This document shows, piece after piece, positions 1-36,324 of a stretch of DNA of 36,324 bases (its first letter is position 1; every line of letters begins with the position of its first letter). The position numbers were made by a program, and so were the translations under genes. The DNA is from a virus. Where the stretch lies: the IMG/VR virus record IMGVR_UViG_3300038566_000156, positions 1-36,324 of that record; one strand, written 5' to 3'. The notes below the pieces were generated by a model that saw only the letters and a program-made list of their open reading frames with translations, made no database searches and was not told the DNA's origin.

Positions 1-99
1 TGTACATACAGGAAGGCTGGCCGCTCAATGAAATTCGTTTTGAGTCAGTACCTTATGCTAATGAAGTATTGCACCTATCAGTAGTACAACCACTTTCTG
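1..99. repeat. 99-bp terminal overlap, identical to 36226..36324; closes the genome into a circle
   Basis: Reading both ends base by base, 'tgtacatacaggaaggctggccgctcaatg...caaccactttctg' occurs at 1..99 and again at 36226..36324. An ORF runs continuously and in frame across the junction. Confidence 0.9.
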
Positions 100-356
100 A
101 GCTACTGCCTACCACTGGCTTAACTGAAGTTATTAACTTGCCACCGGGTTACGAACGCGCATTGATCTATAACTTGTGCCTAGAGCTTGCGCCAGAGTAC
201 GGCAAAGAGCCTACGGCCCTTATTGCTACTCAAGCTGTTCAAGCCAAGCTAAAGCTAAAGCGAAACAACTACCGCTCACTAGTTCTTGGTATGGATAGAG
301 CGCTTGCTACGCAGCGTAAAGGGATTGGCACTTACATAATTAATCAAGGGCCATAA
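1..356 (+). CDS. P22 gp4-like head-to-tail adaptor (tail accessory factor), 3' part of a wrap-around CDS whose 5' part is 35832..36324; about 249 aa in total
   Basis: The frame is open from the window start and matches the frame at 35832 once 36225 is subtracted. 'ALIYNLCLELAPEYGKEPTALIATQA' resembles P22 gp4 '...[24 protein letters not shown]' as I recall it. The gene lies between coat and the gp10-like gene, as in P22. Confidence 0.75.
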   Translation, partial: YIQEGWPLNEIRFESVPYANEVLHLSVVQPLSELLPTTGLTEVINLPPGYERALIYNLCLELAPEYGKEPTALIATQAVQAKLKLKRNNYRSLVLGMDRALATQRKGIGTYIINQGP

Positions 357-357
357 T

Positions 358-1725
358 ATGCAGCGCGAAATACCTTTAGCGGTAAATACGGCGGAGCAAG
401 ACATATCAGGCAATGAGAGCTTGGTTAATGTTTATCCGCGCAAATCCACCGGAGGAAAGTATCAGTTTAGTCTTGTTGGTACACCGGGCCTTGCATACTT
501 TGCAGAGTTGCCTACATATCCAGTGCTGGGCCTTCACTCTATTGGTTCGAGAGTGTTTGCTTTCACGCCTAGTAAAATGTATGAGATAGCAGCAAGCGGC
601 GCTCACACTGAATTGGGTGACGTTTCATTAAGCGGCAGAATTTCAATTGATGACAACGGCAATCAGATTGTCGTTGTCGATGGCTCAAAAGGCTATTACT
701 ACGACCGGTCATTGAATGAAGTTAAGCAAATCACCGCTCCGGGCTTTTATCCATCATCCACGGTAACGTATCAAGATGGTTACTTTATATTTGAGCGCTC
801 AGGTACGGGGCAATTTTATCTATCGGAATTGCTTAGTGTTGCTTTTGATCCTAATGATTACGCAACAGCAGAAGGCCGACCAGATAACCTAGTCGCGGTA
901 TTAAGCGATCACCGAGAGTTGTTTTTGTTTGGCGAAGACTCGATAGAGGTTTGGTATAACTCCGGTGCGTCTGATTTTCCATTTGAAAGAAACCAAGGAG
1001 CATTTATTGAAAAGGGTTGCGCCGCTAAATATTCAGTGGCCAAGCAGGATAATACTGTTTTCTTTGTGGGTTCCGACCTAATTGTTTATAGAATGCTGGG
1101 CTATGTTCCGCAGAGAATCAGCACACACGCAGTTGAACTAACACTACTGGATATTGATTTAAGCGATTGCTTTGCATACACCTATCAGGACTCAGGGCAA
1201 TTGTTTTACGTTCTGACTGTTCCATCTAGCAATATAACGTGGTGCTATGATGTTTCATTAGGTTCATGGCATATACGAAAGGATTATCATTTTGGGCGAC
1301 ACAGAAGCAATTGCGCGGTTTTTACAAACAACAAAACACTGGTGGGGGATTTCCAAAACGGGCGAATCTACCAGCTTACAACTGACTGGCTAACCGATGA
1401 CGGAGAACCAATAGAGCGCGAGTTTGTACTACCCACTGTAAATAATGGCCGTGAGTTTTTGACTGTTTATAGCTTGGAATTGGACATGCAAACCGGTATA
1501 GGATTAATTCAGGGCCAAGGCAGTGATCCTCAAGCTATTTGTACCTTCTCAAAAGATAACGGTAAAACATGGTCAAACGATAGGCTTGCACCTATCGGCA
1601 AGCTTGGCGAATACCTAAAGCGTTTAAAGTGGAATCGCTTTGGCGTTTCAAGGCAGTTTGTTTTTAAGATACGCATAACCGACCCGGTTAAAATCGACAT
1701 TGGCGCAGCGTATATTGAGGTTTAA
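358..1725 (+). CDS. P22 gp10-like tail hub / phage stabilisation protein
   Basis: 455 aa versus 472 aa for P22 gp10. The C-terminus 'LKWNRFGVSRQFVFKIRITDPVKIDIGAAYIEV' resembles my recollection of P22 gp10 'LWKRVGRIRRLIGFKLRVITKSPVTLSGCQIRLE'. It starts 1 nt after the adaptor stop and is syntenic with P22 (4-10-26). Confidence 0.8.
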   Translation: MQREIPLAVNTAEQDISGNESLVNVYPRKSTGGKYQFSLVGTPGLAYFAELPTYPVLGLHSIGSRVFAFTPSKMYEIAASGAHTELGDVSLSGRISIDDNGNQIVVVDGSKGYYYDRSLNEVKQITAPGFYPSSTVTYQDGYFIFERSGTGQFYLSELLSVAFDPNDYATAEGRPDNLVAVLSDHRELFLFGEDSIEVWYNSGASDFPFERNQGAFIEKGCAAKYSVAKQDNTVFFVGSDLIVYRMLGYVPQRISTHAVELTLLDIDLSDCFAYTYQDSGQLFYVLTVPSSNITWCYDVSLGSWHIRKDYHFGRHRSNCAVFTNNKTLVGDFQNGRIYQLTTDWLTDDGEPIEREFVLPTVNNGREFLTVYSLELDMQTGIGLIQGQGSDPQAICTFSKDNGKTWSNDRLAPIGKLGEYLKRLKWNRFGVSRQFVFKIRITDPVKIDIGAAYIEV

Positions 1726-2376
1726 ATGGCTAAAAATATAGTTTCACAACCACCAATACAGGTTCCAATAACCGACCTAAGCGGCAATATTTCTAAGGCG
1801 TGGTCAATTTGGTTCCGCGATCTATACCGCCGAGTCGCATACAAAGGCGGTAATGCCATTGATGAAAACAAAAAAATCACAGATCAGGCAATAGATGGAA
1901 TCAACCTAGACGTTTCAGAAATTGACGACAAGCTACTTCTTGCTAATGCAACCATTGCCGAAGTAATTATTGCCGTTAATGAAAACGAAACTGAAATAAC
2001 AGCAAACAAAGCCGATATAGACAATCACATAGCGCTAGAATCCGCTCATGGTTCAAATGGAAATGTGGTTGGCTTTAACGATATTGCTACCGATGCCGTT
2101 GTGGGCTTAGTCAAAAGAATGCAGATTGTCGCCGATGCCGTAGATGCTACCAGTTCAAGCGTAGTAGTAAGTTCACCTAATGCTACAGCAGCACCGGCGG
2201 CATACGATCAAGCGCAAGTCCAAACCATTGTCACACTGGCCAATGAAACCAAGGCTGATGTTAATACTCTGGCCTCTGATTTGAATACCGTTGTCACAGA
2301 GGTTAATGCTATAGTTACTAAACTAAACAGTTTGATAGCCAACTCAAAAACAGCGGGGCAAATGAATAATGTCTGA
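1726..2376 (+). CDS. Tail needle / short fibre, coiled-coil trimer type (P22 gp26 position)
   Basis: 216 aa versus 233 aa for P22 gp26. It has heptad-like coiled-coil stretches ('ETEITANKADIDNHIALE', 'TKADVNTLASDLNTVVTEVNAIVTKLNSLI') and sits immediately after the gp10-like gene. Confidence 0.55.
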   Translation: MAKNIVSQPPIQVPITDLSGNISKAWSIWFRDLYRRVAYKGGNAIDENKKITDQAIDGINLDVSEIDDKLLLANATIAEVIIAVNENETEITANKADIDNHIALESAHGSNGNVVGFNDIATDAVVGLVKRMQIVADAVDATSSSVVVSSPNATAAPAAYDQAQVQTIVTLANETKADVNTLASDLNTVVTEVNAIVTKLNSLIANSKTAGQMNNV

Positions 2377-3232
2377 TAGCGTAAATGTAAGTAACGAGCA
2401 GAAAGGTATTGATATTGTCGGGGCTGCTTGCTTGCCTGATAAAGCCGAAAGCATTGCTTCGTTATTTGCACTTGAAGCCAAAATGAAAGAGTTCCCACAG
2501 CTTGATATTCCTATTGACCATCACTTTCATGCTGGTATGTATGCGCGTGAGCTTACAATTAAAGCAGGTACGCTACTAACCGGACGCATTCATAAGTTCG
2601 ACCACTTTGATATTATGCTAAGCGGTGATATTACGGTTTCAACCGATGACGGCCAAGTTAAGCGATTAACTGGTTTAAATATCATGCAAGGTAAAGCCGG
2701 TAAAAAACGCGCTGGCTATGCCCACAGTGATACGCATTGGATAACCTTTCATAGCACCGATGAGCGCCATGAAGATGAAATGCTTGATTACCTTACTTGT
2801 GAAACCTTTGAAGAGCTTGAAGATTTTAATGTTGCGGTAAATCGTGCTGATTACTTACTAATGGTCGATTCAATTGGAATGACCGAAGACGAGATCAGTA
2901 AGCAAGTAACCAATGAAGCCGATATGATGGCTATGCCTGATGAGTACAACATGGCATTCGTTGGCGAATCAAAGATTCATGGCAAAGGATATTTTGCAGA
3001 CCAATTAATAACAGGCGGCTCCCTTATTGCCCCGGCAAGAATTGGTGATTTTAGAACAGAAGCAGGGCGCTATACTAATCACGCACTAAACCCGAACGCC
3101 GCTATGGTAGTTTGTGGCTCCGGTGTAAACCTTATGGCCCTAAAAGATATTGAACCAGGTGAAGAGATTACGGCTAACTATCGTGATGTTATTAACCACA
3201 GATCAGAGCATGGTGATTTATGTCAGGCGTAG
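2369..3232 (+). CDS. Two-domain protein: N-terminal cupin-like beta-barrel plus C-terminal minimal SET domain (putative protein lysine methyltransferase)
   Basis: The C-terminal ~90 aa carry SET signatures: 'IHGKGYFA' (GxG region), 'RYTNHALNPNA' (NHxxxPN) and 'GEEITANY' (ELxxxY-type). Their spacing matches what I recall of chlorella-virus vSET. The N-terminal region 'HHFHAGMYARELTIKAGTLLTGRIHKFDHFDIMLSGDITV' is cupin-like. The gene occupies the P22 gene-14 slot. Confidence 0.7.
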   Translation: MSDSVNVSNEQKGIDIVGAACLPDKAESIASLFALEAKMKEFPQLDIPIDHHFHAGMYARELTIKAGTLLTGRIHKFDHFDIMLSGDITVSTDDGQVKRLTGLNIMQGKAGKKRAGYAHSDTHWITFHSTDERHEDEMLDYLTCETFEELEDFNVAVNRADYLLMVDSIGMTEDEISKQVTNEADMMAMPDEYNMAFVGESKIHGKGYFADQLITGGSLIAPARIGDFRTEAGRYTNHALNPNAAMVVCGSGVNLMALKDIEPGEEITANYRDVINHRSEHGDLCQA

Positions 3233-3906
3233 CAACGGCGATTGTTGGTTCCGCAGTAATTGGGGGATATGCAAGCAATCAAGCAAGTAATGCACAAGCA
3301 AAAGCCACAAAAGCCGGTATTCGCGCAGAGCAACAAATGAGCGCCGAGAACATAGCATTTCAGCGTGAAATGGCAGCAGAACAGCGAGAAGATTTTGCGC
3401 CGTGGACTGAGGCTGGCGGGCAAGCGCTAGATAAACTCTGGGCTGGCGTTCAGTCTGGCGAGTTTGAAGTTGGCAAGATTGATGTAAAGCAAGACCCCGG
3501 CTATCAATTTAGAATGAATGAAGGCGTAGAGGCGCTAGATAAATCAGCGGCAGCGCGAGGGCGATTACTTAGTGGCGCTCAAAACAAAGCCATTACAGAT
3601 TATGCACAAGGCCAAGCCAGCCAAGAATACGGCGCAGCCTATGCACGCGAGGCTGATGCTAAAGCTAGAAAATACAATATGCTTTCTGGCTTATCACAAC
3701 AAGGCCAAGCCAGCGCAGCGCGTCAAGCAGGCGCAACAAGTCAGCTTGCATCGACTGGCGGTAACATTATGGCTCAATCAGGGCAGGCGCAAAACATAGC
3801 ACAGCAGAACATAGGCGCAGCTAGAGCTAGTGCTTATCAAGGCATGGCTCAATCTACAAACCAAGCCGCGCAAAACTGGATGCTTTACCAATCACTAGGA
3901 AAATAA
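3220..3906 (+). CDS. Ejection (internal virion / DNA-transfer) protein, P22 gp7 position
   Basis: 228 aa versus 229 aa for P22 gp7. It has a hydrophobic Gly/Ala-rich N-terminus 'VATAIVGSAVIGGYA' and is otherwise Q/A-rich and low in complexity. Assignment rests on synteny. Confidence 0.55.
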   Translation: MSGVATAIVGSAVIGGYASNQASNAQAKATKAGIRAEQQMSAENIAFQREMAAEQREDFAPWTEAGGQALDKLWAGVQSGEFEVGKIDVKQDPGYQFRMNEGVEALDKSAAARGRLLSGAQNKAITDYAQGQASQEYGAAYAREADAKARKYNMLSGLSQQGQASAARQAGATSQLASTGGNIMAQSGQAQNIAQQNIGAARASAYQGMAQSTNQAAQNWMLYQSLGK

Positions 3907-4835: not shown

Positions 4836-7800
4836 GTGAGTCAGTTCATCGCAGATTTTAGAAAAAAGAACCCGCAATACAATGATATGGCAGACGACCA
4901 ATTAGTTTCTGCTCTTCATCGCAAATACTATTCTGATATGGATGTTGAGGCATTCAATCAAAAGATAGGCTATCAATCAGTTGCCGAGCAGCCTATCGAG
5001 CAGGTTCAAGCGGTAGAGCCGCAGGTGGAGCCTACCCAGGCTAAAGCTATTCAATCGGAAGTCATACCGCAGCAAGAAGTCATTGAGCAGCAAGAACAAG
5101 AGCCTTCAATGTTTGATATGGTTAGCTCAAAGCTTAATGAGCTGGCAGCAGACCCAGTGCCGAATGCTGTTAAAGGTGCAATAGAGCGTGCAGGTGATGT
5201 TGGCGCGGGATTCTTAACCACTATCAATACCGCAGCAAGAGAAGCCGAGCAATCTATGCCAATTGGCGGTTTTGTTTGGGATGGTGGAGTATTGCCAAGC
5301 TATAAGGGGCCAGAAGAATACCAAGCTTACTTACAGCAAGGCGGTAAGGATATTCTAGCTGAAACCGAAGAAAGCGCTAAAGGCTTAGAGGCTGGCTACA
5401 TTCCTACGCATACCTGGGAAGAGGTAAAGCGCGAATTTTCAGAGGGTGGTGCTTTAAGCGGCAGCGCTTGGGGTGAGGTTGTTGGCTATATTGGCGAACA
5501 GGGGGTTAAATCCATTCCTGATATGGCAGCAGCGCTATTAAACCTACCTAGTTATATTATTGCCAGATCGGGTGAAATCGGTGAAACGCGAGCGGAAAAC
5601 AAAGGCAAAGATAAGACAGACTTAATTGATATTGTTGAAGCCGTACCTTTTGCCGTAGGTAGCGCACTATTAGAGCGAATTGGGGCAAAGGGGATTACTG
5701 AAGCAGGAGCAGAGGCTTTTGGTAAGGAAGCATTAAAATCAGGATTCAAAGAAGCAGCTAAGCGAACAGCTAAAGCAGGGGCTAAAGCTGGCACCAAAGA
5801 AGCGGTAACCGAAGCAATTCAAGAGGGTATGATTGAATATGCAGGCGAGCGACTAGGCACTAATGCAAAGATGACTCTTGCCGAATCACTAGACCTTGCA
5901 GCAGCGGGCGCGGTTGCTGGTGGCGGTATGGGTGGTGGTGCAGGTACGGTTTCAGCAGGTTACAAAGAAGCCACTTACAACCCAGAGGCAGAGCTAGGCA
6001 AAGCACTTAACAACCTTATCGACCAATCGCGCTTTGAGATTGACCAAGAGGCTATTACAAGACAATTCGACCCAGCTAATGCACAGCTAGAAGCTAGACC
6101 ACAACAAGAAAGCACCGAAGGCACAATAAAGTTAAAGCCACACACTCCGCTTGAATTAACAGGTGAGTTTGAAGGCGTGCAGCCTAAAGGTGAATTTGCA
6201 CCAGGTATGCCTGAAAGCACACCGGCGGTTTACGATATTCCAGAAGCACCAAAAAATACAAAGCAGATCGCAGAAGAAAAGGCCGAGCCTAAAGAGCAGG
6301 GCCAAATTAAAGGCTTGGCAGTTGTTGAAGCGCCAATTGATGAAGTCACTCTTTCGAGTGATGTGCCGCAATTCAAGGAAGGTGCTAATGCTAGTGGTGT
6401 TGTTGAACCATTAGGCGGTAAGTTTGAGCGCACCGGTGTTGCACCAATTCAAATATGGGTTCGAGAAGATGGCCGAAAAGAAGTTATTTCCGGTCGCCAT
6501 AGCTTAGACCTAGCAAAGCGCAGCGGTGAACAAACAATCCCAGCACAGTACCACTACGAGAGCGAAGGCTTTACCGTAGAGCAAGCAGCATCATTAGACG
6601 CTATTCTTAATATTCGTGAAGGCCAAGGCAAGGTAAAAGATTATGTCGAATTCATACAAGCAACAAAGCCAACAGAAGCCGAAGCAGCAGCACAAGGCAT
6701 TTTGGCAAGACAAACGGGCAAACGGGCGTTCACAATCGCAGATTCAGGAAGCGATACGCTCATTGCCAGTCATCGAGCTAACCAAATCAGTGACGAAGCA
6801 GCCACAAGGATAGCAAGAGCAGCGCCAAAGAATGACGCGCTTCAATCGGTAGGCATTAAAGCTATTCAGGATGGTAAGACTATCATCATGGCTGAAAACC
6901 TAGTTAAAGCCGTTGGCAGCATGACCACCGACAAGCAGCAGGCTACAGACGATTTATTCGGCTTTGATGATTCAGCAATGAAAGAAGCCGTTGAGCTCGC
7001 CAAGAAGGTTGGCAAAAAGCAGGCGGAGATTCAGCGCACATTGACCGCGGTAACCGGTGCGGCCAAAAACCCAGAGCTTGCCAGAAAAGAAGGGGTAGAC
7101 GTTAAAGACCCCGAAGGCATTAAGAAGAAGATCAAGCAGCTTAAATCTAAAAAGAAAGCATGGGATAACTGGCACACCAACCCAAAGCTAATGGAGCAAT
7201 TGACGGGCAAGAAAAAGGCCGACCAATTACCAGCCAAAGAAGAAGTCACCAAAAAAGAAGAAAAAAGCTACGATGTAGACAAGTGGAACTACAAACAAGG
7301 TAAAGCTGATAGTACGCAACCAGTGCGCACCAAAACAGTTAAAGGTATTACGCTTAATGTAAGTGAAAGCTTTGAAGATAAGCAAATGTTCGCGCTTAAC
7401 TCCGATGGTGAAGTGGTAGGCGATTTATTCTTTTCTTTTGATGAAGGCAAGCTATACGGTTCGGTTGAGGTAAGAGAAGACAGTCGCAGGCAAGGCATTG
7501 CCACAATGATGTATGACTTTGCCAGCGAGATAGAAGGCGTTGAGATAAACCCGTCAGAAGGCCATACGGATGATGCGGCCGCATTTTGGGCAGACCGAAA
7601 AGCAAAGAAAAAGCCAGAGCTATCCCAATCAGATGCCGACCGTTTGATTGCTGATGTTAAAAGCAGTGATCTAGGCGTAAGCCGTACCAATGCGCTAATC
7701 AAAGACATTACCGATGCGGTAAATGGCAAGCAGGAGTCAGTTAAGCGACAACTTAAAAACCTAGCCGAGCTTAACGACAAACAAAGCAAATCTGAAACCA

Positions 7801-10800
7801 AGGCCAAGACAGAAGAAACCAAAGCCAAAACAAAAAAGACCCAGCAAGAAAGCAAAGCAGCACTTGAAAAAGAGCAAAAGCGCGAACGTATTTATTCCGG
7901 TAACTATGAAGGACTGCAACCAAATTACGTTACCTGGTTAAAGTCACTGAGCGATACCAAGCGAAAAGAATTGTTTGCTAAAGGTTCTAACCCAACTATT
8001 GCGAACAGTGAGTTTATTGCTTACAAGCCAGATTTTGATCTAGGCCAGCAGACCGAAGCCGACATTAAAGCGGCAGAAGAGAAGCAGGCTAAAGCCAAGG
8101 CCGAAGAAAAAGCAGCAGAAGCAAAGGCCGAAGCCGATAAGCAAGTGGATGACTTTGTACTTGCCGGTTCCGACCGAGTAGCAGACCAAGCCGAAGCTAG
8201 AGGTCAAGCTGGATTATTCGATGCACCGGCAGAGCCAAAAGCGCAGCAAACAGATTCTACGATAGAAATTAAGCGCGATGGCAAAACAGTAGCAAGCGTT
8301 GATTATTCAGTCTTTGAAGGCATACCAGCCGTTAAGATGATTAATACCGATCCAGATTACCAACGACAAGGATTAGCAACAGAAGCGCTTATAAAGCTGC
8401 AAGCTAAGTTTCCTGATGTTGAAATTGATCTAGGCTCACTAACAGGCGATGGTGCAAAGCTAATTGATTCGCTTGAGTACAATGTTATTGGTAGTGGTGA
8501 TTATGAATCGACCGTAAATAAGCTAGAAGAAACTGAGGCCAAGCTAGAAGAATATAGTGAACTGGCTGAAAACTTTAACTTTTCAGAAGCTACGGAAGCA
8601 GAAAGATTAGAATACAGAGAAGCAACAAAAGACTGGGATGACCTTCACGATCTTAAAAATGATTTAGAAAATGAACTGGCAGAGCTTGAGCCTTCAAAGA
8701 AAATCATCATAGGAAAGAAAAAGAAAGCAGAGCCAAAAGCTAAAAAGGAGCCAGTGGCTAGTTCCAAAAAGGAACCAGCCACTAAAGACCCTATCAAACT
8801 GGACTACTCAAACAATGCCGTTATCGCATTTCATAAGTTTAGAGAGTCAACGGGGAAAGGAACGGCAACCAAGCAAGATATTCAATCTAGTTTTGATGAT
8901 CTAGTCGAAAGCAAAGACGCGGTACTGGCACAGCTTAAAAAGCTAACCAAGGCGCAGTTGCTTAAATACGTTGGCCGTAGTGATCTTAAAAAGCCTGCTA
9001 TGGTAGAGGCAGCTTATAAAACGATGTTAAGCGCTCATGTTTTTGGCGATATGGTTATGACTATCTTCGGTGGAAGTAAGACCTATGAAGAACAGATAGC
9101 TGAAAAAGTAGCAAAACAAACTCAAGAGCAAATCGAAACCGACTATGAGCGCCAGCGTGAAGCAAGAGCAGAGCGCGACAAGCGAAAAGAATCCTTTGTT
9201 AAGTCGCTAACCAATCCCGAAACCTTGGCCGAGTATAAGGAATTCATTCGTGTACGCGGAAAAGCAAAGCTAACCACTGAGCAGCTAAAGACCTATGACA
9301 CGCTAGTTGCTGATTCAATGCTAGAAGAAGACAAGGCCAAGCCAAAAACCGTACAGGGTGAAGCTGAAGCGGTAGAAACTACCCGCGCAGAAACAACCCA
9401 CGCGAAGAAAGGCCACCAGCTATTTGTTGTCTCGCTTGTTAATCGTGTTAGCAAAGAGCAATACAAAGAACTCAATGATAAGGCCAAAGAGTTTGGCGGC
9501 TACTACAGCGCTTATAACAAAGCTGGTGCTATCCCAGGCTTTCAATTTAAAACGATTGAAGAGGCCGACCAATTCGAGCAGGTATTGAAAGGCAAGGATA
9601 CCGACAAGAGTGATTTTGAAGAAGCCAAAGCCGATGTTAAGAATTCCAAGCAAGCCGACAAGCTTATGGAAATGGCCGACAAGCTAGAAGCAAAGGGAAA
9701 TGAATCACTAGGGCAAGACCGCCAAACCAATACCGGTAAGCGTGCAGCGCAGGCAGCCAGCGCAAGCGAGAAAGCTTACAAGCAGATAGCAACGGCTCAA
9801 ACGGTTAAGCAGATTGCCACAAAAATGGCAGCGGGTGAGATCGTTTACTTGGGCAAGATGACGCAGATAACCCAACTGGAAGAGCTTAAGGCTATTCAGC
9901 GCAAGGCAGTGCCTAGCTCAATGATGCACAGCGAGTACGATGGTTATTCCATTAGCAACTCAATGAAAGAAGGCGTGACGGTAGAGGATTATATTAATAA
10001 CGTCCGTATGCCTGAGCTGTTTATTGATAAAGAGCGAGCGAAGCGCTTCAGCGATAAGCTTGATGGGGTGAAAGGGTTTAGCCGATTTTCTGCAGAACTT
10101 AAAAAACTGCCAATGGCAGAGGGTAAAGTTCACCTTGGCCGATTGACGAAAGACCAAGTTAAAAAAATTCATGACGCGGTGAAAGCTGGCCACCTTAGTT
10201 CTTACGAGCTTGGCTTTATTCCAGATCGTGAAAAGACAATGAATCGCCTTGATAAGTTAGGCATTAAAACCGATGAGCAATTACGTACAGCTATTCGTGA
10301 ACTTGATTCGCTAACGGTTACCGAGCAGAAAGAAGACCCAATTAAAAAGCTTGAGCGTGACTTAGTTGGCAAGAAGATCGAAGGTTATTTCCCAACGCCT
10401 CGCGAACTGGTTGAGCAAATGATTGACTATGCTGAAATTCAGCCAGGTCACCAAGTGCTAGAGCCTTCTGCCGGTAAAGGGAATATTGCCGACATTATCA
10501 AAGAGTCTGAGCCTAATGCTGAAATCGATGTTATCGAAATCAATCAAGGCTTGCGCTCAATGCTTGAGATCAAAGGCTATAACGTAGTTTCTAACGACTT
10601 CACTGAATACGATGGCAAGCAGTACGACAGAATCATAATGAATCCGCCGTTTGAGAACTTCCAAGACATTGATCACGTTAAGCACGCCTATGAATTGTTA
10701 AAGCCTGGTGGCAAGTTAGTTGCCATCATGGGTGCTGGTGTCAAAAATTCACGCAAGAAGGCTGTAGAGTTCCGCCAATGGATTGACGAGTCTGGCTCTT

Positions 10801-13800
10801 ACATTGAAGACCTGCCCGATGGCAGCTTTAAATCTTCAGAACGCCAGACGGGTGTTGCCACAGTGATGGTGACGATTGATAAGCCTGATACCAATACGCT
10901 AAACCGCCGAGAAGATGAGCAGCCAGCGAAGCTAAATAGCGGCCAGCCTTCGGTTGTGCACGCCCCAGGTCATAACTATGTAGACCTTTATCGCTCCACC
11001 GGCATTCCTTCACGCAAGGAAGTTTTCACCATTGAGGGCCGCAGCATTAAGATGCCAGCAGAGCCGCAGCGTATAGAGCCAATTATGCGCCAGCTAGTAA
11101 AGATCATGGGCCGCAGAATTTACAACGGCAAAATCAAAGGTAAATCAGTACAAGGATTTTACCGTAGCGATGTTGGTGAGCTTAGAACCGCTCGCAAGAA
11201 TGATGTTGAGATTTTGGCGCATGAAATGGCTCACTACCTCGACCTATATTCAAATGTCTCTTTGCCTAACTTCAAAAGGCTTTATAAGCAGGCCGCGTTT
11301 AAAGATGAGGTTGCAGCACTAAGCTATACCGATGATAAAAAATTGGAGCTGCTAGAAGGCTTTGCCGAGTTTGTGCGCCTATGGCTGACCAATTCAAACG
11401 AAGCGAAGCTAAGAGCGCCAGGCTTTTATGATGCCTTTGTTAAAGAGCTTGCGCGTGATCGCAAGCTATTGAATCCAATGCGTGACATGCAGGAAGCAAT
11501 GCACAAGTTTTACTTCCAAGGTTCTGACAAGCTTGGGCAAGCGCTTATTGGTCGTGACGAAGGTGTTTATGGGAAGTTCATGGATTGGACCTATCGCCGT
11601 GACAGCCTTGTTCGCCAAGAAACAATTGATAAGTTTCACGCAGCGCGAGAAGTTGAAAAAGAATTAACCGGTAAGCTAAGCGATCCAGTACAGGGCTCAG
11701 CGTGGAAGCAATTCAGAATTGCAAACGGCGGATATGAGGGCATAGCAGAATACATTATGAACTATGGCACCTTAGAGTTTGCCGAAAACGGTGACCTGGT
11801 TCGCAGTGGTAAAAGCCTTTATGAAATCCTAAAGCCGGTCGATGAACTCAAGGGGTTGATTAAAGCTGATCCAAAATACAAAGGCCAAAAGCCTATTGAT
11901 TTATTAATGCGTTACTTTGCCGGACGTAGAGCTTTGGAACTTCACCGCCAAGGCCGCGAGAATCTTATTCCTAAAGAAACCGCTAAGGAATGGGCAAAGA
12001 TGGGAAGAACATTCCCGATGTTCGGGAATATTTTCATTGAGTATCAAGAGTTCAATACTCGCATGATGGATATGTACCAGCAGGCAGGTCTATTGACTCC
12101 TGAAGCGCGTCAAACAATGGAGTCCGTTAATAAAGATTATGTCCCATTCAACCGATTGCGCGATAGCCTAGAAGAAGGCAAGGGCGGCGGTGGCGGATTT
12201 CAGCGCTTAAAAGGCGGCACTGCTAACCTTGAAGATATTCTTCACAATATTCAAGACGGCGTAACATCAAACGTAAAAGCCGCACTGGATGCAAAAGCAA
12301 AGCAGCGCTTGTATCAATACATTGCTAATCACCGTGACGGGGCTATTTGGGCGACTAAGATAGCGCCAGATTCCAAGCTAGTTAAAACTCACTTGGCCGA
12401 CATGGAAAAGAAAATTGGCGAAGTGCTAGAAGCTTCAGGCGTAGTGATTGAGGGCGAACTAGATTTAAGCGACCCAGGCTTATTAAACTTTTGGCAGCAT
12501 GGCGTAAAGCCAACGCTAACCGAGTCGGGTAATTTTGTTGATACCGTTTTAATAAATGGCAAGCCGCAATATTTTGAAGTGCAAGACCCGCTACTGCAGG
12601 AAATGCTATTGACCATGAATGGCGAATCTTACAGCTCGCTAATGAATGGCATGTTTGCGGTGAAAAACTTCTTCACCCGTAGCATTACATTAGGCGTTGA
12701 ATTTACTGGGGCCAACCTGGTGCGCGATACAATTGGCGCGACCTTCATTAGTAAAAATAAGTTCATGCCTTTCGTTGGTTCATTCAAAGGAATGTATTCG
12801 TACCTATCAAGGGATGAGCACTTTCAAGACTTTATGCGTTCCGGTGGTGGTTACTCTAGCCGCTTACATGGAAGCACCAAAGCAGGCAAGGCTCGCCAGC
12901 GTGTGCAAATTAAAGACGTTGGCGTGGGTAATAGAACTCAGCGCATGCTAAGCGCATTCGATAATATTATGAGCGCGTTTGAATACGGTACTCGTATCGG
13001 TGAATTCAGACTGGCCAAAAAGAACGGCGCAAGCGATATGGATGCAGCCTTTGCAGCACGCGAAATATCGACCGACTTCAGTGTTTACGGGGCTAACCAT
13101 TTCTTGACGGGCTACATTCGCACTGTGCCTTTCTTGAATGCAATGATTCAGTCTCAAGATCGTGTATTTAGAGAAGCGTTTATTAAAAACAAGTACGGCG
13201 GTAACCCTACAGGATTGGCAATGAAAGCCTTTCTAGGCCTGACCGTACCAACGCTATTGCTTTGGCTGTTCAACAAGGATGACGAAGAATACAAAGAGAT
13301 TCCAGATCATGAGAAGCGCACCAATTGGCATATACCCCTAGGCAATGGCCGATTTATGAAAATGCCGCGCCCTTACGATGTTGGTTTTGTTTATGCCACT
13401 ATGCCAGAGCTTTTCTTTAAGTACTTAGAAGACGAAAACGGAAAAGAGTATGCCGAAGGTATGGCTTGGACAATGCTACAAATGTACGGCATTGACGGCG
13501 TTCCTGCAGCGGCTCAAGGCTGGTGGGATATTACCCGCAACAAGAAATGGACGGGTGCGCCAGTTGTGCCGCATGGAATGGCCGATGTGTCAGCAACTAA
13601 TCAATACAATTCAAACACCAGTGAAACCTTTATTCGATTAGGCCAAGCGCTTGGAATGAGCCCGATAAAAGCAGAGCATGCCTTTAAAGCTCAGACTGGT
13701 TACCTGGGCGGCTACTTGCTTTGGGGAACTGAGAAGCTAATGTGGGATGAAGACAAGTTTGGCGAAATGCCAGACAAAGACGTTTCTAGCAATATTTTCA

Positions 13801-14276
13801 TTAAGCGATTCCTTACGCCAGAAACTCGACCTAATAACCGCAGCATGGAAAAGTTCTTTGATTTAAAAGAACAATCTGACCGTGTGACCGCAGACTTTAA
13901 AGCCGGTATTGATATTCGCAGAATGATTAAAGGCGACAAGCAAACAGAATTTGAAAAAGACGATACGTTCTTTGGGCTAAGCAAAGGCGAAAAAGAAGTA
14001 TTGTTTGCACTGAACGATTCAATGAATGATCTAATCAGTATTGCTTACGGTAAGGAAGGAATAAAGACTCAAGAGCATTCAATACGCTACAATCCTAAAC
14101 TAACTGCCGAGCAAAAACGCGAAAGCCTTGATAAGCTATGGCAACAAAGAAACGCAATGTTCACTCAATACTATAACGAAGCTACCAAGGCGCTAGACAA
14201 AGCCAAGAAGGTTGCTAAGAAAACAGGCATTGAAGGATCACGAAACGAACTAATGAAAAATAAAGAAGGTAAATAA
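4836..14276 (+). CDS. Giant polyvalent protein (3146 aa) in the P22 gp16 ejection-protein slot. It carries a ParB-like domain, two mini-GNATs, an N6A DNA methyltransferase, a zincin metallopeptidase and a large C-terminal module.
   Basis: GTG start with RBS AAGGAGA at 4822..4828, followed by 9.4 kb of uninterrupted ORF. Motifs: 'GRHSLDLAKRSG' (6492..6527), 'RRQGIAT' (7485..7505), 'QRQGLAT' (8361..8381), 'VLEPSAGKG' (10455..10481), 'NPPF' (10641..10652), 'HEMAH' (11220..11234). K/E/A-rich linkers separate the modules. Confidence 0.85.
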   Translation: MSQFIADFRKKNPQYNDMADDQLVSALHRKYYSDMDVEAFNQKIGYQSVAEQPIEQVQAVEPQVEPTQAKAIQSEVIPQQEVIEQQEQEPSMFDMVSSKLNELAADPVPNAVKGAIERAGDVGAGFLTTINTAAREAEQSMPIGGFVWDGGVLPSYKGPEEYQAYLQQGGKDILAETEESAKGLEAGYIPTHTWEEVKREFSEGGALSGSAWGEVVGYIGEQGVKSIPDMAAALLNLPSYIIARSGEIGETRAENKGKDKTDLIDIVEAVPFAVGSALLERIGAKGITEAGAEAFGKEALKSGFKEAAKRTAKAGAKAGTKEAVTEAIQEGMIEYAGERLGTNAKMTLAESLDLAAAGAVAGGGMGGGAGTVSAGYKEATYNPEAELGKALNNLIDQSRFEIDQEAITRQFDPANAQLEARPQQESTEGTIKLKPHTPLELTGEFEGVQPKGEFAPGMPESTPAVYDIPEAPKNTKQIAEEKAEPKEQGQIKGLAVVEAPIDEVTLSSDVPQFKEGANASGVVEPLGGKFERTGVAPIQIWVREDGRKEVISGRHSLDLAKRSGEQTIPAQYHYESEGFTVEQAASLDAILNIREGQGKVKDYVEFIQATKPTEAEAAAQGILARQTGKRAFTIADSGSDTLIASHRANQISDEAATRIARAAPKNDALQSVGIKAIQDGKTIIMAENLVKAVGSMTTDKQQATDDLFGFDDSAMKEAVELAKKVGKKQAEIQRTLTAVTGAAKNPELARKEGVDVKDPEGIKKKIKQLKSKKKAWDNWHTNPKLMEQLTGKKKADQLPAKEEVTKKEEKSYDVDKWNYKQGKADSTQPVRTKTVKGITLNVSESFEDKQMFALNSDGEVVGDLFFSFDEGKLYGSVEVREDSRRQGIATMMYDFASEIEGVEINPSEGHTDDAAAFWADRKAKKKPELSQSDADRLIADVKSSDLGVSRTNALIKDITDAVNGKQESVKRQLKNLAELNDKQSKSETKAKTEETKAKTKKTQQESKAALEKEQKRERIYSGNYEGLQPNYVTWLKSLSDTKRKELFAKGSNPTIANSEFIAYKPDFDLGQQTEADIKAAEEKQAKAKAEEKAAEAKAEADKQVDDFVLAGSDRVADQAEARGQAGLFDAPAEPKAQQTDSTIEIKRDGKTVASVDYSVFEGIPAVKMINTDPDYQRQGLATEALIKLQAKFPDVEIDLGSLTGDGAKLIDSLEYNVIGSGDYESTVNKLEETEAKLEEYSELAENFNFSEATEAERLEYREATKDWDDLHDLKNDLENELAELEPSKKIIIGKKKKAEPKAKKEPVASSKKEPATKDPIKLDYSNNAVIAFHKFRESTGKGTATKQDIQSSFDDLVESKDAVLAQLKKLTKAQLLKYVGRSDLKKPAMVEAAYKTMLSAHVFGDMVMTIFGGSKTYEEQIAEKVAKQTQEQIETDYERQREARAERDKRKESFVKSLTNPETLAEYKEFIRVRGKAKLTTEQLKTYDTLVADSMLEEDKAKPKTVQGEAEAVETTRAETTHAKKGHQLFVVSLVNRVSKEQYKELNDKAKEFGGYYSAYNKAGAIPGFQFKTIEEADQFEQVLKGKDTDKSDFEEAKADVKNSKQADKLMEMADKLEAKGNESLGQDRQTNTGKRAAQAASASEKAYKQIATAQTVKQIATKMAAGEIVYLGKMTQITQLEELKAIQRKAVPSSMMHSEYDGYSISNSMKEGVTVEDYINNVRMPELFIDKERAKRFSDKLDGVKGFSRFSAELKKLPMAEGKVHLGRLTKDQVKKIHDAVKAGHLSSYELGFIPDREKTMNRLDKLGIKTDEQLRTAIRELDSLTVTEQKEDPIKKLERDLVGKKIEGYFPTPRELVEQMIDYAEIQPGHQVLEPSAGKGNIADIIKESEPNAEIDVIEINQGLRSMLEIKGYNVVSNDFTEYDGKQYDRIIMNPPFENFQDIDHVKHAYELLKPGGKLVAIMGAGVKNSRKKAVEFRQWIDESGSYIEDLPDGSFKSSERQTGVATVMVTIDKPDTNTLNRREDEQPAKLNSGQPSVVHAPGHNYVDLYRSTGIPSRKEVFTIEGRSIKMPAEPQRIEPIMRQLVKIMGRRIYNGKIKGKSVQGFYRSDVGELRTARKNDVEILAHEMAHYLDLYSNVSLPNFKRLYKQAAFKDEVAALSYTDDKKLELLEGFAEFVRLWLTNSNEAKLRAPGFYDAFVKELARDRKLLNPMRDMQEAMHKFYFQGSDKLGQALIGRDEGVYGKFMDWTYRRDSLVRQETIDKFHAAREVEKELTGKLSDPVQGSAWKQFRIANGGYEGIAEYIMNYGTLEFAENGDLVRSGKSLYEILKPVDELKGLIKADPKYKGQKPIDLLMRYFAGRRALELHRQGRENLIPKETAKEWAKMGRTFPMFGNIFIEYQEFNTRMMDMYQQAGLLTPEARQTMESVNKDYVPFNRLRDSLEEGKGGGGGFQRLKGGTANLEDILHNIQDGVTSNVKAALDAKAKQRLYQYIANHRDGAIWATKIAPDSKLVKTHLADMEKKIGEVLEASGVVIEGELDLSDPGLLNFWQHGVKPTLTESGNFVDTVLINGKPQYFEVQDPLLQEMLLTMNGESYSSLMNGMFAVKNFFTRSITLGVEFTGANLVRDTIGATFISKNKFMPFVGSFKGMYSYLSRDEHFQDFMRSGGGYSSRLHGSTKAGKARQRVQIKDVGVGNRTQRMLSAFDNIMSAFEYGTRIGEFRLAKKNGASDMDAAFAAREISTDFSVYGANHFLTGYIRTVPFLNAMIQSQDRVFREAFIKNKYGGNPTGLAMKAFLGLTVPTLLLWLFNKDDEEYKEIPDHEKRTNWHIPLGNGRFMKMPRPYDVGFVYATMPELFFKYLEDENGKEYAEGMAWTMLQMYGIDGVPAAAQGWWDITRNKKWTGAPVVPHGMADVSATNQYNSNTSETFIRLGQALGMSPIKAEHAFKAQTGYLGGYLLWGTEKLMWDEDKFGEMPDKDVSSNIFIKRFLTPETRPNNRSMEKFFDLKEQSDRVTADFKAGIDIRRMIKGDKQTEFEKDDTFFGLSKGEKEVLFALNDSMNDLISIAYGKEGIKTQEHSIRYNPKLTAEQKRESLDKLWQQRNAMFTQYYNEATKALDKAKKVAKKTGIEGSRNELMKNKEGK

Positions 14277-17292: not shown

Positions 17293-17323
17293 AAAATAAA
17301 CAAAAGCCTACTAATCAGTAGGC
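17293..17323 (-). terminator. Rho-independent terminator of the leftward operon (hairpin may also act on the + strand)
   Basis: A 7-bp stem GCCTACT/AGTAGGC (17306..17312 and 17317..17323) with a 4-nt loop. On the - strand it is followed by TTTTGTTTATTTT. It overlaps the last codons of the NinG-like CDS. Confidence 0.6.
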
Positions 17324-17919
17324 CTTCTTTCCTCCACTCGCTTAATGGCTTTCTTGGTTATTTTTATAGCTCGTTTTATCCATTCAATATCGAAGTTGGT
17401 AATGTCTGATTTATGCTTTAGCAGGTAATCAAACCTTTCTTGGCCTATCTTCTCAATAATCGCTGGTGTGTATTCGCCAATATTCCCGGACAAGTGAGAA
17501 TTACATACCGAGCAAGACTTGTGTACGTTCCAAAGATTAAACCGTAAAGCCGAGCTATGGCCGCGTGAGTAGTAGTGCGAAGCGTGCCACTGGCCTTGCC
17601 AATCTTTAGGCTTATCGCAGCTAATACAGCCTAAATGCGAATCCCTAAGCCTTACATATTTATTAAATACTGCTTGAAGCTCTGCCAGCCATTTTGCTTT
17701 GGGTTTAACTCGTTCCTTGGCTTCTTTGTGCTTTGCCCGCTTAACTTTTTCAACGGCCAAATTATCGCGCTTAACCTTTGCCAACTGCTTCGCTTGCTGC
17801 TTCTTTCGCACTTCGCCAGCAAATAACATTGCATGGTCTACGGTACAGAATGTGCCTACTGGTAGAGTTACCCAGGTTTCAACATACTCTTTGCAGTGCT
17901 TGCACTTACGCTTTGCCAT
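17311..17919 (-). CDS. ninG: NinG/Rap-family recombination endonuclease
   Basis: 'MAKRKCKHCKEY...CISCD...WHASHYYSRGHSSALRFNLWNVHKSCSVCNSHLSGNIGEY' is the lambda NinG signature. I prefer the ATG at 17919 (RBS GGAG 8 nt upstream, 1-nt gap after the upstream ORF stop) over the ORF-track start at 17973. Confidence 0.8.
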   Translation of the reverse strand: MAKRKCKHCKEYVETWVTLPVGTFCTVDHAMLFAGEVRKKQQAKQLAKVKRDNLAVEKVKRAKHKEAKERVKPKAKWLAELQAVFNKYVRLRDSHLGCISCDKPKDWQGQWHASHYYSRGHSSALRFNLWNVHKSCSVCNSHLSGNIGEYTPAIIEKIGQERFDYLLKHKSDITNFDIEWIKRAIKITKKAIKRVEERRPTD

Positions 17920-21266: not shown

Positions 21267-21428
21267 ATGAAAACACTTATATTAGCTTTAGCGGTTTTGC
21301 TGGTGGGTTGCAGCGACTACGAAGAAGGGCAGAAAGCAGAAATGCACTATTGCTTGATGGTAGAGAATGGATATTGGGGTGCTTATAACCCTGACATTAA
21401 ATGTGAAGAGGTACTTAAGAATGACTAA
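21267..21428 (+). CDS. Small lipoprotein (53-aa precursor), first gene of the rightward operon
   Basis: 'MKTLILALAVLLVGC' is a signal peptide with an LVGC lipobox. RBS GAGGTG is at 21258..21263. I prefer the ATG at 21267 over the ORF-track start at 21207. Confidence 0.65.
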   Translation: MKTLILALAVLLVGCSDYEEGQKAEMHYCLMVENGYWGAYNPDIKCEEVLKND

Positions 21429-22209
21429 AGAAAATGAAGTGGCGGTAAAAGATGGGCCGACTCTAGGCGAAGTAAAGGCACCGGCAGCAATGCCAGTTCT
21501 GGCCGATCCATTTACCAACATGGTAAGTATGGCGGTAGAAAAGGGTTTAGATATTGAGCAGCTAACAGCGCTTATGGATTTAAAAGACCGCAACGATGCG
21601 AAGGTATCAAAGCAAGAATTTAACTTTGCTCTTTCTAAGTTCCAGTCTGAAATACCAGTAATTCTAAAGCGTGGATTTGCTGATTTTGGTGCTGGAAAGG
21701 CTAAGTATTCTTTTGCATTACTGGAAGACATAGCAGTCAAGATAAAGCCTCACCTTATGCCTAACGGATTATCTTATCGTTACGAGCAAACCGTTGGCAA
21801 CGGCGGCATAGAAGTTACTTGTATCGTTGCACACTCCGGCGGCCATGAGATCAAAGCAACTATGTTTTCAACTCCTGACAGCTCAGGCGGAAAGAACAGC
21901 ATTCAACAAGTAGCATCGGCAGTTCAATACATGCGCCGCTATACGCTTACAGGCGCTCTAGGTATCACCACGGCAGACTTTGACGATGACGCGGCCAGCA
22001 TGGCGAGCGAACAGGTTCCTGGTGCTTTGATTAACGATAGCGAATATTGCACAGAAGAGAAGTTTCAAAAATCATTCCCTGCTTGGGAAAAGCAGATTAA
22101 AGAAGGAAAGAAAACTCCTAGTGAATTAATAACCTTCTTAAATGGTAAGAATTTATTCTTTACCGAAGATCAACTAGCAGCAATCAGTAACGCACAGGTG
22201 GGTAAATAA
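21421..22209 (+). CDS. erf: Erf-family single-strand annealing protein
   Basis: 'ALSKFQSEIPVILKRG...KYSFALLEDIAVKIKPHLMPNGLSY...IQQVASAVQYMRRYTLTGALGI' matches the ERF-family core. The ATG at 21421 overlaps the lipoprotein stop by 8 nt. Confidence 0.75.
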   Translation: MTKENEVAVKDGPTLGEVKAPAAMPVLADPFTNMVSMAVEKGLDIEQLTALMDLKDRNDAKVSKQEFNFALSKFQSEIPVILKRGFADFGAGKAKYSFALLEDIAVKIKPHLMPNGLSYRYEQTVGNGGIEVTCIVAHSGGHEIKATMFSTPDSSGGKNSIQQVASAVQYMRRYTLTGALGITTADFDDDAASMASEQVPGALINDSEYCTEEKFQKSFPAWEKQIKEGKKTPSELITFLNGKNLFFTEDQLAAISNAQVGK

Positions 22210-22211
22210 TT

Positions 22212-35831: not shown

Positions 35832-36324
35832 ATGGCATTCACAGTGGGCGGCGCTATCCGAAGCGCAATGAGAAAAATTGGTGTGCTCGCCCCTGGGGAA
35901 GCATTACCGGCGCATGAAGGCGATGATGCCTTAGAGGTGTTTCGCCAAATGGTTGATGATTGGGCCAATGAAATCTTGTTGATTCCAATTGTTAATGATG
36001 TGCTTTTCACACTTAGTCCTGATGTGTCTGAATACACTATCGGCATTTATCCAGAGCCAAAGCCAGACCCATTACCTGAGAACCATATTGAGACTTCACG
36101 ACCAGAGCGGATTATCGCGGCGTTTATTCGTGATGGCTCAAACACTGATTATCAATTAGAGCTAATGGATATTAAAACCTATTCACGAATTAGCCAAAAA
36201 GGTAACGGTTCGCGCCCTTCTCGAATGTACATACAGGAAGGCTGGCCGCTCAATGAAATTCGTTTTGAGTCAGTACCTTATGCTAATGAAGTATTGCACC
36301 TATCAGTAGTACAACCACTTTCTG
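35832..36324 (+). CDS. P22 gp4-like head-to-tail adaptor, 5' part (continues at window position 100 through 356)
   Basis: 'GAIRSAMRKIGVLAPGEALPAHEGDDALEVFRQMVDDWANE' parallels P22 gp4 '[40 protein letters not shown]' (recalled). The frame stays open to the end of the window. Confidence 0.75.
   Translation, partial: MAFTVGGAIRSAMRKIGVLAPGEALPAHEGDDALEVFRQMVDDWANEILLIPIVNDVLFTLSPDVSEYTIGIYPEPKPDPLPENHIETSRPERIIAAFIRDGSNTDYQLELMDIKTYSRISQKGNGSRPSRMYIQEGWPLNEIRFESVPYANEVLHLSVVQPLS
36226..36324. repeat. Second copy of the 99-bp terminal overlap
   Basis: Identical to 1..99 by direct reading. Confidence 0.9.

Follow-up and report, generated by a model that had tools for sequence, protein, structure and literature searches.

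A cupin-SET fusion protein encoded between the needle-position and DNA ejection genes of a marine P22-like podovirus

A stretch of viral DNA of 36,324 nucleotides (positions 1 to 36,324 of the IMG/VR record IMGVR_UViG_3300038566_000156), hereafter called the window, carries among its tail and ejection genes a gene for a 287-residue protein in which an N-terminal cupin module is fused to a C-terminal SET module. The open reading frame lies exactly where the initial annotation had placed it, with an ATG start at 2369 and a stop codon ending at 3232. The full-length protein matches phrog_34170, a family of unknown function, at 1.6e-76, and more than 300 clusters of homologous proteins were found in metagenomes. 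From an alignment of 50 homologues, AlphaFold2 produced a model of the full protein with a mean predicted local distance difference test score (pLDDT) of 90.5 and a predicted template modelling score (pTM) of 0.79. The features of the gene are as follows.

2369..3232, + strand: cupin-SET open reading frame, 287 amino acids and stop codon, ATG at 2369 (open reading frame list, sequence)
2441..2833, + strand: cupin module, residues ~25-155, an N-terminal helix and then a small RmlC-like beta-barrel (AlphaFold2, Foldseek, PHROG)
2840..3211, + strand: SET cassette, residues ~158-281 (Pfam SET, profile matches, BLASTP boundary)
2981..2989, + strand: SET motif I, G205-K-G207, predicted turn binding S-adenosylmethionine (SAM), aligning to HGRGLF of MLL1
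3077..3097, + strand: SET motif III, N237-H238-A-L-N-P242-N243, predicted pseudoknot and SAM-binding segment, aligning to NHSCEPN of MLL1
3161..3181, + strand: SET motif IV, E265-E266-I-T268-A-N-Y271, with the predicted catalytic tyrosine, aligning to GEELTYDY of MLL1
3212..3232, + strand: C-terminal tail G-D-L-C-Q-A and stop codon, a conserved tail overlapping the start of the downstream gene

Profile, fold and motifs all place the protein in the SET superfamily. The three signatures on which this had been proposed (GxG, NHxxxPN and EEITxNY) are all found, and both checks that were run, comparison with the Pfam profile PF00856 and structure prediction, give the SET fold. The Pfam match has an E-value of 2.8e-8 (34.6 bits against a gathering cut-off of 22.4). 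When a profile of the SET part was compared with solved structures, the MLL1 SET domain was matched at 2.5e-10 and vSET (1n3j) at 4.5e-8, together with the SET domains of EZH2, SMYD3 and NSD. A Foldseek search with the C-terminal half of the model retrieved the MLL1 SET domain with a root mean square deviation of 2.7 A over 116 columns, and vSET (3kma) with a TM-score of 0.64 and an E-value of 2e-5. The pLDDT exceeds 90 over most of residues 190-280. The module is longer than the C-terminal 90 residues first assigned to it. It covers about 125 residues (~158-281) and consists of a helical pre-SET segment at residues ~158-195 (DY..FL.E.G.T...D.IP.P), the SET core at ~196-272 and a C-terminal helix.

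The active site is strictly conserved. In the alignment of 50 homologues (46-89% identity), G207, R224, G233, N237, H238, N243, E266, T268 and Y271 are invariant in all 50, and the catalytic residues are likewise invariant in 24 SET segments and in 15 proteins in which the two domains stand in the reverse order (see below). Such invariance is far beyond chance and indicates purifying selection on the active site. Motif III runs R234-Y-T-N237-H238-A-L-N-P-N243 and contains no cysteine, so that a zinc-binding post-SET is absent. The SET-I insert is also missing, as only ~8-10 residues separate the PARIG hairpin from RYTNH, versus ~40-45 in MLL1 and vSET. These absences are a departure in form and do not exclude the protein from the SET family, since vSET also has no post-SET. 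The pre-SET helices may substitute for the SET-I insert. The module is likely an active methyltransferase; it would bind SAM and transfer the methyl group to the epsilon-amino group of a protein lysine.

The N-terminal cupin barrel, also anticipated from the sequence, is borne out by the AlphaFold2 model, in which nine strands lie between residues 50 and 129, and by Foldseek matches of the N-terminal half to cupin_2 structures (3d82, 3fjs, 3lag, 2ozj, 1yhf and the CENP-C cupin; E 5e-6 to 5e-5). This module matches phrog_12032 at 8.5e-46 and phrog_24280 at 4.5e-42, two families with tail-fibre labels. The window protein has no Pfam cupin match. Homologues match Pfam Cupin_2 below threshold: gp43 of phage phiAp1 at E 0.0035 (17.4 bits, gathering cut-off 27.2) and the metagenomic protein P0286 at 5.3e-5 (23.3 bits). 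Some Vibrio phage records annotate the cupin as 'RmlC-like jelly roll fold'. The labels 'short tail fiber' and 'tail fiber adhesin' were taken as artefacts of annotation and rejected, since the model shows a globular cupin with helices and a SET domain and contains no fibre. The tail-fibre label goes back to annotation by homology and to one paper's threading model of low confidence, and no experimental basis for 'short tail fiber' was found in the literature.

The residues invariant across the whole cupin family are Q44, Y58, R60, G72, G86, G95, G111 and K113. In the marine clade H79-x-D81, H128 and K113/R114 are invariant as well, and H119 is nearly so. In the SET-bearing protein of Rhodoferax phage P26218, D81 is replaced by N, H119 by L and H128 by Y, and most of the putative metal ligands are missing from Bbp23 of Bordetella phage BPP-1 and from phiAp1 gp43. 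In the alignment with these three proteins, conserved metal-binding His/Glu/Asp residues of cupin motifs 1 and 2 were not found outside the marine clade. That the module is a conserved metallo-oxygenase is unlikely on these sequences. By analogy, it would most likely be a docking or dimerisation module for the assembly of ejection proteins. Small cupins and the CENP-C cupin are dimerisation modules, and their presence among the matches favours such a binding or dimerisation role.

Searched with tblastn against 50,697 phage records, the cupin module was found in 74, mostly as a protein of 150-190 residues without SET; these include phages of Vibrio, Shewanella, Ralstonia and Alteromonas, Thalassomonas phage BA3 and Bordetella phage BPP-1 (Bbp23). 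The SET part was present in only eight of the same records, which correspond to five distinct phages and are all fused (PH1, P26218, zth2-2 and Manatee Spring contigs). IMG/VR contains at least 586 stretches of the family, fused and unfused. SET domains had been described in the initial annotation as uncommon in phages; this holds for cultured phages (8 of 50,697 records) and fails for metagenomes, with their more than 300 clusters and at least 586 IMG/VR stretches. In metagenomes the fused and unfused forms are both abundant and are interleaved at equal cupin similarity. Among 185,579 bacterial and archaeal species genomes, only two contigs of metagenome-assembled genomes match, and these are probably binned phage. 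To judge from these searches, the cupin-SET family is phage-restricted.

The presence or absence of SET was mapped on a neighbour-joining tree of the cupin domain comprising 119 fused and 59 unfused proteins. It requires 14 changes, 10-15 in 30 bootstraps, and at least 42 when the states are shuffled. SET therefore appears to have been gained or lost at least ten times; the exact count is soft because of the short alignment and the distance tree, and the occurrence of multiple events is robust. Beyond its own clade, whose members share at least 86% identity in the cupin-region search, the cupin of the window is nearest to unfused proteins. The SET part was further searched over 1.84 billion protein representatives clustered at 50% identity, which gave 1173 matches. 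The best 148 of these were classified with hidden Markov models of both modules, as follows.

Cupin followed by SET: 57 of the best 148
SET followed by cupin: 17 of the best 148
SET only, up to 200 residues, some possibly fragments: 69 of the best 148
SET with something else: 3 of the best 148
SET within a 1549-residue protein: 1 of the best 148
No SET match: 1 of the best 148

PHROG scans showed that the C-terminal domain of the reversed proteins belongs to the same cupin family, and the alignment of the reversed order retains the SET catalytic residues and the Y-x-R signature of the cupin. The helical segment corresponding to window residues ~158-195 travels together with the SET core in the alignment. 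In BLASTP, residues 403-525 of the giant protein (P0400) and residues 9-124 of a reversed fusion align to residues 152-276 of the window protein. From this edge at residues ~152-161 the mobile unit would measure about 125 residues, a size similar to that of vSET. On this evidence, the same two families have been fused independently in both orders, which points to a functional partnership of cupin and SET. Taken together, the sequences describe the cupin as a conserved occupant of one genomic slot, widespread in podoviruses and usually without SET, and the SET domain as a facultative mobile cassette.

The window is the complete, circularly assembled genome, of about 36.2 kb, of a marine P22-like podovirus. 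Its completeness follows from a terminal direct repeat, the same 99 bases standing at both ends (1-99 and 36226-36324). No near-identical cultured relative was found when 20 kb were compared by megablast with the 50,697 phage records. According to PHROG and Pfam labels, the head genes (terminase, portal, scaffold and major capsid) precede the junction of the window. Beyond it come the Ad3 adaptor, the Hc3/gp10-like protein, a coiled-coil protein at the needle position and the cupin-SET gene, and 3' of the latter a gp7-like 'DNA ejection' protein, a 303-residue protein, a 3146-residue polyvalent protein and a 944-residue beta-helix tailspike. This order parallels P22 genes 4-10-26-14-7-20-16-9. 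The Ad3-like adaptor gene (listed at 69..356) is split by the window junction and matches only positions 150-238 of phrog_12985. The main neighbours are the following.

358..1725, + strand: gp10-like head-closure or tail-hub protein, Hc3 (phrog_578, 8.4e-133)
1726..2376, + strand: coiled-coil protein at the needle (P22 gp26) position (open reading frame list, weak head-fibre-like coil matches, P22 synteny)
3220..3906, + strand: gp7-like 'DNA ejection' protein, 228 residues (phrog_598, 1.7e-40)
4836..14276, + strand: 3146-residue polyvalent protein at the gp16 position (Pfam LPD38 3.9e-40, MTS 9.3e-7, Acetyltransf_1 4.9e-6)

The PHROG labels and the synteny with P22 thus agree with the location between needle and ejection genes that had been read from the sequence. 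The P22 gene-14 position likewise stands, as a positional equivalence only and not as homology to gp14 (see below). In the 3146-residue protein, an LPD38 domain lies at residues 2816-2980, a class-I methyltransferase domain at ~1870-1968 and GNAT domains at ~848-903 and ~1141-1192; over most of its length it matches no family. It provides context, in that this phage invests in large enzyme-bearing proteins in its ejection block. NCBIfam gave no match for the cupin-SET protein or its neighbours. The late genes lie on a single strand and abut or overlap, the cupin-SET gene overlapping its upstream neighbour by 8 nucleotides and its downstream neighbour by 13, and promoter- or terminator-like sites are not enriched around them. 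For these reasons the cupin-SET gene belongs to the late operon and is translationally coupled to its neighbours. Just 3' of the tailspike gene, at 17302-17327, a strong hairpin of 11 pairs on the minus strand with a matching one of 7 pairs on the plus strand marks the meeting of the plus-strand late operon with minus-strand genes and looks like a bidirectional terminator. A recombination module, with an Erf-like single-strand annealing protein and a RecE-like exonuclease, is encoded on the plus strand at 21367-23891.

A tail of the form KG(D/E)LCQ terminates both fused and cupin-only homologues, and in the window (3205-3232) it overlaps the Shine-Dalgarno-like GGTGA and the ATG (3220) of the ejection gene. 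The overlap forms a translational-coupling junction, with GGTGA as the likely Shine-Dalgarno sequence. The conservation of KG(D/E)LCQ may reflect a dual-coding or coupling constraint rather than a protein motif. As the same tail closes both architectures, SET is inserted 5' of a coupling junction that is conserved. P0001, a cluster representative, is identical over the whole query and then continues for nine more residues (QQRRLLVPQ) past the TAG, as if TAG were read as Gln (window 3230-3259). This extension reflects either a variant of the sequence or gene calling under a different genetic code. The window gives no sign of recoding, and the open reading frame of 3146 residues is intact under the standard bacterial code.

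The genomic contexts of relatives were sampled at 80 IMG/VR loci, 56 fused and 24 unfused. In 64 of the 80 the cupin gene is preceded on the same strand by a gp10-like gene, and directly downstream a gp7-like gene was detected (tblastn, 1e-4) in 21 of 21 unfused loci and, among the fused, in 22 of 52; in the remaining fused loci the downstream gene is too divergent for tblastn at 1e-4. The slot between gp10/needle and the gp7-like gene is kept in related loci and is shared by BA3 and many Vibrio phages. In phiAp1, a T7-like Ralstonia phage, the cupin-only gene occupies the T7 gene-13 position, with tail tube B on one side and the internal virion proteins on the other. BPP-1 differs from both P22-like and T7-like phages in its cupin location: bbp23 directly follows the GNAT gene bbp24 (Acetyltransf_1, 6.5e-7), the pair lying at L005:5495-6414 between terminase and portal.

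Single-protein IMG/VR scans returned almost nothing for the reversed, stand-alone and giant forms, and their loci were recovered by exact-sequence contig look-ups. The reversed fusion P0296 stands after a collagen-like tail fibre gene and a gene of 133 residues, and before genes for proteins of 285, 587 and more than 1711 residues. In the metagenomic phage L100 (3371-10650), a cupin-only gene of 160 residues (phrog_12032, 9.5e-28) retains the slot, and SET is found three genes 3' of it, at residues 403-525 of a 1549-residue protein whose remainder has no family match. The downstream proteins of L094 and L100 are called ejection proteins on position and size only. The stand-alone SET cassette adjoins Toprim primase and DnaB helicase genes in one context, stands directly after an N6/N4 DNA methyltransferase gene in another, and is also found amid small open reading frames. 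The possibility that stand-alone SET genes are a split version adjoining a cupin gene was rejected, as no cupin was detectable beside them in those loci, several of whose contigs are very short. On a 78-kb viral contig (L093:5138-6800), two SET-like segments about 1.4 kb apart lie near proteins with a DnaJ domain and collagen repeats, with no cupin nearby.

The protein that occupies the slot in P22, gp14, is not homologous to the window protein. The BLASTP E-value is 1.7, gp14 belongs to other families (Pfam DUF2824, phrog_651), and its predicted fold is of the GNAT type as opposed to cupin and SET. Homology to T7 gp13 was rejected too (hhalign probability 0.2%). P22 gene 14 (L003:8911-9363) was modelled through a homologue with 96% identity (pLDDT 90.9, pTM 0.85), and the top Foldseek matches of this model are all GNAT N-acetyltransferases: SpeG (E 4e-9, TM ~0.8), AAC(6')-Ib and a protein acetyltransferase. 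A GNAT N-acetyltransferase fold is thus confidently predicted for gp14 from the model. The canonical acetyl-CoA motif was not recognised in the gp14 consensus, and comparison of the gp14 profile with the BPP-1 GNAT protein (hhalign, single sequence) gave no signal. The protein is labelled 'head morphogenesis' or assembly, its role in P22 is poorly defined, and nothing relevant on gene 14 was found in the literature. Given the model, the slot would hold an amine-acyltransferase fold in P22 and an amine-methyltransferase fold here. The GNAT fold offers a lead on the role of gp14 and suggests a shared logic for the slot.

How does the cupin-SET protein act? In the initial annotation it was read as a possible virion component that methylates structural or ejection proteins, or as an injected effector directed at nucleoid or ribosomal proteins of the host. 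The explanation that we favour, although we hold it only tentatively, is that it is a cupin-tethered SET methyltransferase, co-packaged and co-ejected, which acts on a host protein. The enzyme would be expressed late, through translational coupling to its neighbours; the cupin would tether it to the ejection proteins in the procapsid; it would be co-packaged and then released with these proteins into the next host cell; and there, in the earliest moments of infection, it would methylate a host protein, perhaps one that is nucleoid-associated or serves translation or defence. Such a mechanism would be the bacterial-virus counterpart of the virion-packaged vSET of PBCV-1. A link with the ejection module is suggested by the conserved slot, by the corresponding slot in the T7-like phiAp1, by the neighbours of the reversed fusion and by the embedding of SET in the giant protein of L100. 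That SET is an accessory, cell-directed element is suggested by the ten or more gains and losses, by the unfused proteins as nearest relatives of the window cupin and by stand-alone cassettes without a cupin. Co-ejection directed at the host is favoured because the cassette appears dispensable for assembly, occurs alone outside structural modules, is found inside the giant protein of L100 and has a precedent in vSET. The giant neighbour with LPD38, methyltransferase and GNAT domains also supports this explanation.

Several points weigh against co-ejection. No homologue, fused or unfused, was found in a virion proteome or a solved virion structure (literature, Foldseek), the top 50 Foldseek matches in the PDB are only cellular cupins and SET domains, and no experimental basis was found for the 'short tail fiber' labels. 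The positional analogue in P22, gp14, is not known to be a virion protein. BLASTP of the window proteins against the giant proteins in L094 and L100 revealed no similarity, and the contexts of the stand-alone cassette are mixed, one copy lying between a 920-residue protein and an M15 endolysin. Because the usual insert of 40-45 residues is missing from the SET core, its activity may require the pre-SET helices, dimerisation or a partner. Finally, an enzyme made late could equally modify phage proteins during assembly.

This last possibility deserves serious attention, even if we find it somewhat less probable than co-ejection. The enzyme would then not be packaged, or only incidentally, and would methylate lysines of the phage's own ejection, internal or portal-tail proteins, with the cupin recognising the substrate; methylation would tune the solubility, protease resistance or interactions of the ejection proteins. 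Translational coupling to the gp7-like ejection gene across a conserved junction speaks for such a role, as do the assembly label and predicted amine-acetyltransferase fold of gp14 in the P22 slot and the GNAT gene that adjoins the cupin gene of BPP-1. In L100 the giant protein that carries SET belongs to the same block, and there SET could modify its own polypeptide. However, SET has been repeatedly gained and lost while the ejection proteins remained homologous, which indicates that it is not needed for assembly, and the same cassette occurs alone beside replication or DNA-methylase genes, far from structural modules. It is improbable that SET is inactive or only binds, leaving a purely structural or morphogenetic protein such as a dimeric adaptor or a chaperone for ejection proteins. 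The core is indeed truncated relative to MLL1 and vSET through the loss of SET-I, and cupin alone suffices in most relatives, but GxG, R, NH, N, E, T and the catalytic Y are invariant in homologues, reversed-order and stand-alone forms, which would be unexpected for a decayed enzyme, and the model is confident across the domain. Very improbable, in our view, is a bifunctional enzyme whose cupin would be a metal-dependent JmjC-like hydroxylase or demethylase working with SET on the same lysine. In the marine clade, H79-x-D81, H128, H119 and K113/R114 resemble a facial triad with a Lys/Arg binding 2-oxoglutarate. These ligands are nevertheless lost in distant homologues, including the SET-bearing P26218; the family-wide invariants are instead Q44, Y58, R60, K113 and glycines, and Foldseek retrieves small cupin_2 barrels, not JmjC proteins or 2-oxoglutarate oxygenases.

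A broader conjecture, which we consider unlikely as a whole, extends co-ejection to the slot itself. The slot 5' of podovirus ejection genes would be a hot-spot for interchangeable amine-modifying enzymes (SET here, GNAT in gp14, GNAT beside the BPP-1 cupin), loaded into the capsid through a complex of cupin and ejection proteins. Injected before the DNA, these enzymes would methylate or acetylate lysines on nucleoid, translation or defence proteins of the host. If this were true, virion-packaged vSET would have a prokaryotic equivalent, and host takeover would include a layer at the protein level that has so far gone unrecognised.

Lysine methylation by SET domains is textbook knowledge for eukaryotic chromatin and is known in one giant algal virus and a few bacterial effectors; we found no study in the literature of SET lysine methylation in tailed phages. 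Here, a minimal SET cassette, predicted to be catalytically intact, is common in aquatic podoviruses and repeatedly fused, in both orders, to a cupin of the ejection block. Should the enzyme be packaged and injected, this would be a new means by which phages reprogramme or disarm bacteria within the first seconds of an infection, and a bacterial protein methylated on lysine would be implied as the target. Should the ejection proteins be methylated instead, the assembly of phage virions would offer a case of enzymatic lysine methylation. Cultured phages with the fused form include Pseudoalteromonas PH1 (gp49) and Rhodoferax P26218 (gp30). The cassette of about 125 residues, with helices in place of the SET-I insert, could also be a useful minimal model of the SET fold.

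The SET domain call itself is not new, as some members already carry the automatic label 'SET domain-containing protein-lysine N-methyltransferase' and the vSET structure is cited in one record. Papers on the phage cupin-SET fusion, its place in the ejection module, its behaviour as a cassette or its fusion in two orders were not found in the literature. Secreted bacterial SET effectors offer a functional analogy. Among cellular SET domains, MLL1 (KMT2A) is the best solved match and has the fold and catalytic motifs in common with the phage domain, which differs in lacking a post-SET zinc cluster, the SET-I insert and a partner complex. The N-terminal module belongs with the podovirus cupins of phrog_12032 and phrog_24280 (BA3 gp0007, Bbp23, phiAp1 gp43), which are 150-190 residues long and have no SET. 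Polyvalent proteins of phages and conjugative elements are large multi-enzyme proteins proposed to be delivered with DNA; the 1549-residue SET carrier and the 3146-residue neighbour in the window resemble them, whereas the window protein is small (287 residues) with two domains. P22 gp14 and T7 gp13 are small proteins encoded at the same relative position in the late operon, just 5' of the ejection or internal-core genes, and show no homology to the window protein. vSET (A612L of PBCV-1) is a minimal viral SET domain of ~120 residues with the same motifs, GxG, NHxxxPN without Cys and EEITxxY. It is encoded as a late-type protein, is packaged by PBCV-1 in the virion and acts on the host when infection begins (PMC7019647). 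In this eukaryotic giant virus vSET stands alone as a protein and has histone H3K27 as substrate, whereas the phage host has no histones; in the phage protein the SET domain is joined to a cupin and has a helical pre-SET segment in place of the missing SET-I insert. The closest relative of the cupin-SET protein is thus vSET in form and possible logic, an MLL-type SET domain in sequence, and the non-homologous P22 gp14 and T7 gp13 in genomic role.

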